Below are positions 18,991 through 19,123 of a stretch of DNA of 64,000 nt, piece after piece. Source of the DNA: Escherichia coli (lineage in GTDB: Bacteria > Pseudomonadota > Gammaproteobacteria > Enterobacterales > Enterobacteriaceae); the NCBI RefSeq assembly GCF_003334385.1, contig NZ_QOWN01000006.1. The stretch is one strand, 5' to 3'. Positions within the stretch are counted from its first letter, which is position 1; each line of letters opens with the position of its first letter. The translations under genes were made by a program, and so were the position numbers. A model generated the notes under the pieces. That model saw only the letters and a program-made list of their open reading frames with translations, was not told the DNA's origin and did no database searches.

Positions 18991-19007
18991 TTGCAGCCTC
19001 TCATAAT

Positions 19008-19027
19008 AACTGTGATTTTATACAGTG
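19008..19027 (-). promoter_or_regulatory. LexA operator (SOS box) for yebG
   Basis: + strand aaCTGTgattttatACAGtg (CTGT-N8-ACAG), about 20 bp upstream of the yebG ATG. Confidence 0.75.
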
Positions 19028-19070
19028 TATTTCTTTTCGGTTGAGAAATCAACATCAGCAATAAAGACAC

Positions 19071-19086
19071 ACGCAAACGTTTTCGT
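19071..19086 (+). promoter_or_regulatory. PurR operator (PUR box) for purT
   Basis: ACGCAAACGTTTTCGT at 19071-19086, near-perfect palindromic PUR box, about 40 bp upstream of the purT ATG. Confidence 0.75.
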
Positions 19087-19123
19087 TTATACTGCGCGCG
19101 GAATTAATCAGGGGATATTCGTT

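Follow-up and report, generated by a model that had tools for sequence, protein, structure and literature searches.

Back-to-back LexA and PurR modules between Escherichia coli yebG and purT very probably act independently

The DNA analysed here, a stretch of 64,000 bases called the window in the following, is a piece of Escherichia coli chromosome that is colinear with K-12 MG1655 (NZ_CP032667.1 1906839-1970838, reverse strand). It differs from K-12 by 16 substitutions (12 transitions, 4 transversions) and by no insertion or deletion; its source is a very close natural relative of K-12. An artificial origin of the 16 differences was rejected in view of the 12:4 ratio of transitions to transversions and of a natural strain that carries the variant at 19027 described below. 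The 901-bp stretch around the yebG-purT spacer was matched in all 5426 complete E. coli genomes.

The genes around the spacer are, in order, ptrB, yebE, yebF, yebG (on the minus strand), purT (on the plus strand), eda/kdgA and edd. The product of yebG scores 206 bits against the NCBIfam equivalog NF007475, above the curated cut-off of 161, and PurT reaches 653 bits with NF006766 and 649 bits with TIGR01142, both of which exceed the curated cut-offs. The start codon of yebG occupies 18990-18988 on the minus strand and the ATG of purT 19124-19126, so that the two genes diverge from an intergenic region of 133 bp (18991-19123). A mechanical open reading frame leads into purT from a GTG at 19025; this GTG was rejected as the true purT start. 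The compact divergent yebG/purT layout of 133 bp had already been described in a sequence-only reading of this DNA, whose gene identities and coordinates were all right. The control region as such is already known and well studied; it is real but ordinary. Belliveau et al. (2018, PNAS 115:E4796, PMC6003448) dissected it in both directions by Sort-Seq saturation mutagenesis. Their K-12 region is the same locus, differing across the region only at 19027, and the architecture they describe is the one read here, with LexA and RNA polymerase at yebG and PurR within the -35/-10 spacer of purT. The features are collected in the table.

Table. Genes and control elements of the yebG-purT region (positions in the window)
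Feature	Position	Strand	Remarks
yebG coding sequence	18700..18990	-	96 aa, DNA damage-inducible protein YebG; open reading frame, annotated as yebG in K-12
yebG ribosome-binding site GAGAGG	18997..19002	-	6 nt before the ATG; read from the sequence
LexA operator (SOS box) of yebG	19008..19027	.	top strand aaCTGTgattttatACAGtg; yebG strand CACTGTATAAAATCACAGTT
Alternative yebG -10, TAAAAT	19020-19015	-	inside the LexA box; position not conserved in Citrobacter
Likely yebG -10, TACACT (K-12: TATACT)	19024..19029	-	putative; LexA box covers its last four bases
Candidate yebG -35, TTGATT	19047..19052	-	putative; 17 bp before the -10; conservation only moderate
purT -35, AAGACA	19064..19069	+	sigma-70-like match
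PurR operator (PUR box) ACGCAAACGTTTTCGT	19071..19086	.	fills the purT -35/-10 spacer
purT -10, TATACT	19088..19093	+	sigma-70-like match; block largely conserved
purT ribosome-binding site AGGGG	19110..19114	+	9 nt before the ATG; read from the sequence
purT coding sequence	19124..20302	+	392 aa, formate-dependent GAR transformylase

The LexA operator has the core CTGT-N8-ACAG at 19010-19025 (CTGTGATTTTATACAG), which is the sole exact core within the 64-kb window, and seven of the eight spacer bases are A or T. The operator ends 17 bp from the ATG of yebG and overlaps both candidate -10 hexamers of this gene. A bare CTGT-N8-ACAG, of which 64 kb should contain 0.83 by chance, carries no significance by itself; if at least 7 of the 8 spacer bases have to be A or T, only 0.019 such sites per 64 kb are expected (1000 first-order simulations). 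A search of the window with the idealised LexA 20-mer TACTGTATATATATACAGTA, allowing up to three mismatches, gave no match, the yebG box having six mismatches to it, which is normal for an SOS box of middle strength. Because the idealised 20-mer gave nothing, the box was judged by its core, by the composition of its spacer and by its conservation. On all of these, as well as in sequence and position, the SOS box that the sequence-only reading had placed at 19008-19027 agrees with our results.

We infer the exact hexamers of the yebG promoter and the transcription start sites. In an alignment of 59 sequences (the window and 58 species) most columns of the GAGAGG block are at least 80% conserved, and the TA at 19028-19029, which lies outside the LexA 20-mer, is at least 95% conserved. 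Since conservation extends in this way beyond the 20-mer, TATACT is favoured as the -10 hexamer over TAAAAT. For yebG the Sort-Seq report describes a LexA site, an RNA polymerase site, which it puts 9 bp further downstream than a previous computational prediction had, and induction by mitomycin C (Belliveau et al. 2018, PMC6003448). In a 2024 study (PMC11228462) yebG is one of the classic SOS genes and has a heterology index of 6.3, 4.4-fold induction by AZT and 9.7-fold dependence on lexA. The yebG gene of Salmonella responds to nalidixic acid with a 41-fold induction, and its box is 17 bp away from the ATG, as it is here.

On the other side of the region, the PUR box has a central CG and a single mismatch to the 16-bp palindromic consensus ACGCAAACGTTTGCGT, a level that was reached in none of 100 shuffles; it is the sole such site in the 64-kb window. 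The elements that flank it, AAGACA and TATACT at a distance of 18 bp (9 of 12 matches), form the only sigma-70-like match in 18600-19400. Sort-Seq describes purT as a case of simple repression with the repressor site between -35 and -10; the site was seen only with adenine and was absent in a purR deletion, and PurR was affinity-purified on purT DNA only in the presence of hypoxanthine (Belliveau et al. 2018, PMC6003448). By ChIP-chip, Cho et al. (2011, PMC3159470) found at purT the sequence ACGAAAACGTTTGCGT, which is the reverse complement of ACGCAAACGTTTTCGT. They report differential expression of purT with purR deletion and adenine, count the gene among those that PurR represses with adenine and list it as a newly found member of the PurR regulon. 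In the main text of their report yebG does not occur, and the site is assigned to purT only. The PUR box for purT at 19071-19086 had likewise been recognised in the sequence-only reading, and its sequence, position, shuffle test and conservation bear this out.

The only difference from K-12 across the yebG-purT region is at 19027, with G in the window and A in K-12. Read on the yebG strand, the substitution puts C in place of T at position 1 of the LexA 20-mer, and it falls on position 3 of the candidate -10, turning TATACT into TACACT. Across species the commonest base in this column is A. Within E. coli the variant is rare, as judged from an even sampling of the ranking of the 5426 genomes: 100% identity over 18975-19140 was seen only in the top-ranked genome of the sample (strain 13P460A, from a pig). 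The size of the yebG ON subpopulation in Salmonella is altered by a naturally occurring SNP in the SOS box of this gene, and for this reason the variant at 19027 could have a measurable effect.

Other LexA-type sites were also seen. In the window, CTGGATAGATATCCAG at 34271-34286 precedes ruvA, a minus-strand gene that starts near 34219, by about 50 bp; it fits the ruvAB SOS box CTGG-N8-CCAG and is a second site of LexA type. The relaxed pattern CTGK-N8-MCAG occurs nine times in the window versus 2.4 expected, most of the others lying in coding sequence and having G/C-rich spacers. Many Citrobacter (loci L007-L009, L011-L019, L021, L022) have a second LexA-like site, ACCTGG(T/C)AATAAAGACAGAC, about 64 bp from the ATG of yebG. 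It has the form CTGG-N8-ACAG with an A/T-rich spacer and overlaps the -35 of purT; E. coli has CAGCAATAAAGACACAC there. A functional second site would place purT of these Citrobacter under the action of LexA; a chance match is equally possible.

For a comparison across species, a scan for YebG with one genome per species yielded 80 loci. In 59 of them purT is the immediate divergent neighbour of yebG; these belong to Enterobacteriaceae and Erwiniaceae (Escherichia, Citrobacter, Salmonella, Klebsiella, Raoultella, Kosakonia, Phytobacter, Pantoea, Erwinia and others). The intergenic region measures 128-141 bp in 58 of the 59. The other one, from Klebsiella spallanzanii, is 261 bp long and has both boxes intact at a distance of 188 bp. 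A LexA-type box next to yebG together with a PUR box (up to three mismatches) next to purT was found in all 59 adjacent loci. Counting also the loci in which dbpA separates the two genes (see below), the LexA-type box is present upstream of yebG in 59/59 adjacent and 20/20 separated loci, and a PUR box with at most three mismatches precedes purT in all 79 loci that contain purT, mostly with one mismatch and the same sequence. The locus of Yersinia nurmii, with no LexA match and no purT within the fetched stretch, falls outside both classes.

In the window the gap between the two boxes is 43 bp (19028-19070), for which the earlier estimate of about 45 bp was a fair one, and their centres are 61 bp apart. 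Among the 59 species the centre-to-centre distance is 59 bp in one, 60 in 30, 61 in five, 62 in 13, 63 in five, 69 in one, 71 in two, 73 in one and 188 in one; that is, 59-63 bp in 54 species, 69-73 bp in four and 188 bp in one. A spread of 4 bp already rotates the helical face by more than 100 degrees. The rarity of insertions and deletions alone could explain the clustering at 59-63 bp.

The conservation alignment, made up of the window and the 58 short intergenic regions, has as its conserved blocks the ribosome-binding site of yebG, the LexA box with 19028-19029, the PUR box, which is the most conserved block of the yebG-purT region, and the -10 of purT. The least conserved part is 19032-19060, between the two modules. 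A shared activator site between the promoters was rejected, as this is where conservation is lowest.

In 20 loci from Yersiniaceae (Yersinia, Serratia, Chimaeribacter, Edaphovirga; loci L053, L055, L056, L058-L061, L065-L068, L071-L075, L077-L079, L081) yebG and purT lie 1.7-2.1 kb apart. The gene between them is dbpA, for an ATP-dependent RNA helicase, as was established by translating three loci; the others share the gap of 1.7-2.1 kb. DbpA of Yersinia pestis scores 747 bits versus NF008744. The dbpA gene is co-oriented with yebG and ends about 90 bp before it. In these loci yebG has kept its LexA box, 34-56 bp before the ATG, and no PUR-like site was found upstream of yebG in the 20 loci; purT has kept its own PUR box, and no LexA-like site was found upstream of purT in the 20 loci. 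The two boxes are not inherited as a unit, each staying with its own gene.

A separation of another kind was observed in E. coli MS 21-1 (NZ_CP146670.1, 1085-3000), where the ISL3-like element ISEc53 is inserted within the LexA box of yebG. The insertion point corresponds to 19014-19021 of the window, and the element has duplicated, as its 8-bp target, GATTTTAT, the very spacer of the LexA box. The LexA palindrome is split into its half-sites and yebG is about 1.9 kb away from purT, with the PUR box and the purT promoter intact. The element carries a gene of the ClbS/DfsB family; ClbS is the colibactin self-protection protein.

By far the most probable interpretation is that the region consists of two independent simple-repression modules placed back to back. 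On the yebG side, leftward transcription would start from a sigma-70 promoter with one LexA dimer site over the -10 and the start region, and LexA would block RNA polymerase until its RecA-stimulated self-cleavage after DNA damage. On the purT side, transcription would run rightward from AAGACA-18-TATACT, and PurR with hypoxanthine or guanine, bound to the 16-bp site that fills the spacer, would exclude RNA polymerase when purines are plentiful. Each gene would follow its own regulon, and the adjacency of the two would be a consequence of the gene order in Enterobacteriaceae and Erwiniaceae rather than a means of signal integration. The sites, where they lie in the promoters, and how they are conserved, on which this interpretation builds, are observed directly. 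The only core promoter that an operator overlaps is its own, and no site is shared or overlapping; about 11 bp separate the two -35 hexamers, of which that of yebG is putative, and nothing conserved lies between them. In the Sort-Seq report three 60-bp windows were mutagenised per promoter, and regulation is described in only one of each (PMC6003448). In the available data each promoter answers its own repressor only, the outcome that the sequence-only reading had itself set against its proposal of a coupling.

Some observations nevertheless weigh against complete independence. In 54 of the 59 species the boxes have stayed 59-63 bp apart despite drift of the intervening sequence, which could hint at a constraint on length. 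With standard footprints from -55 to +20, the two polymerases would share upstream DNA at about 19045-19072, so that an interplay is physically possible. Moreover, the Sort-Seq experiment on yebG is described for minimal glucose and for mitomycin C but not for adenine (PMC6003448); hence the occupancy by PurR may have been low in this assay.

Whether the boxes are operators at all could be doubted, since 0.83 bare LexA cores are expected per 64 kb and the yebG box, six mismatches away from the idealised 20-mer, escapes a search at three or fewer. But a core with an A/T-rich spacer is expected only 0.019 times per 64 kb, none of 100 shuffles reached the level of the PUR box, both boxes are conserved at all loci examined, and binding and response have been published (ChIP, Sort-Seq, expression); that one or both are chance consensus matches devoid of function is refuted and has next to no probability. 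As to what the two operators do to each other, the sequence-only reading had supposed that the bound LexA and PurR could influence the promoters of each other's genes and thereby couple DNA-damage and purine signals. Across the gap of 43 bp, PurR would then work from near -61 of yebG and LexA from near -82 of purT. The identities and the layout given in that reading stand, whereas the mutual influence of the repressors is unsupported. Both sites do lie within 133 bp, in 54 of the 59 species their distance keeps to 59-63 bp, and PurR kinks its operator, by which the upstream contacts of the yebG polymerase could be altered. Yet the core elements of each promoter are clear of the other's operator, the sequence between the two operators drifts, distances of 69, 71, 73 and 188 bp also occur, which speaks against a fixed helical face, and the boxes persist apart in the Yersiniaceae with an intervening dbpA. 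Moreover, the mutagenised windows over the other operator gave no apparent regulation in the Sort-Seq report, with one regulated window per promoter (PMC6003448), the PurR regulon study assigns its site to purT only (PMC3159470), and no interaction of LexA with PurR is reported in the literature found. We regard a coupling through the two repressors as unsupported and very improbable.

A weak coupling could also arise at the level of RNA polymerase, without the repressors, if strongly SOS-induced transcription of yebG slightly hindered purT by competition for upstream DNA, or slightly helped it through the negative supercoiling behind the polymerase, or if the reverse happened. This would fit with start sites that we infer to be about 83 bp apart, with -35 hexamers at a distance of about 11 bp and with a length of the region that is conserved though its central sequence drifts. 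The purine genes, purT included, tend to fall after AZT, which could be taken in the same sense. However, purT is reported to fall after AZT or DNA damage alongside unlinked pur operons, and the effect is linked to SspA; since unlinked operons share it, neither a LexA effect at purT nor another local cause is needed. Mutation of the yebG promoter and LexA window gave no effect on purT in the Sort-Seq report (PMC6003448), and the arrangement is dispensable in Yersiniaceae and in the E. coli strain with the insertion sequence in the region. We therefore give little probability to such an interplay of the polymerases. An equally low probability goes to a special case, in which plentiful purines and DNA damage come together and one module, depending on its occupancy, has a slight effect on the other, for instance through PurR at about -61 of yebG or through heavy yebG transcription beside the -35 of purT; the spacing of 59-63 bp would then be under selection. 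Taken together, a real cross-effect of any kind is unlikely, and it would probably be small.

With the two modules regarded as independent, yebG-purT is a textbook-grade pair of back-to-back simple-repression promoters, and quantitative promoter dissection has already made use of it as a test case. A cross-effect, if true, would provide a small local link from the SOS response to purine synthesis; the fall of the purine genes after DNA damage is genome-wide and independent of this locus. The species comparison adds modest evolutionary evidence for independence, as the boxes are kept in 59 species and stay each with its own gene across dbpA.

Both modules resemble well-known members of their regulons. 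The SOS operators of recA, sulA and umuDC likewise have CTGT-N8-ACAG with an A/T-rich spacer, overlap the promoter and confer LexA-dependent induction. Unlike these classic operators, the yebG box is of middle strength (heterology index 6.3, for the K-12 sequence) and is a single box, and in contrast to the products of recA, sulA and umuDC, YebG is without established function. The PurR operators of purF, purMN, purHD and purC are likewise 16-bp palindromes with a central CG that overlap the -35/-10 region, a position reported to be general for PurR (Cho et al. 2011, PMC3159470). Unlike these genes, purT joined the PurR regulon through genome-wide work. Truly shared divergent control, with one regulator site for both promoters, is known from bioA/bioBFCD with BirA and from many pairs of LysR-type regulators and their targets. 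These also have a short divergent region with back-to-back promoters. The yebG-purT region differs from all of these in that it has two operators for two unrelated repressors, each lying on its own promoter only, and in that the pairing is dispensable in evolution.
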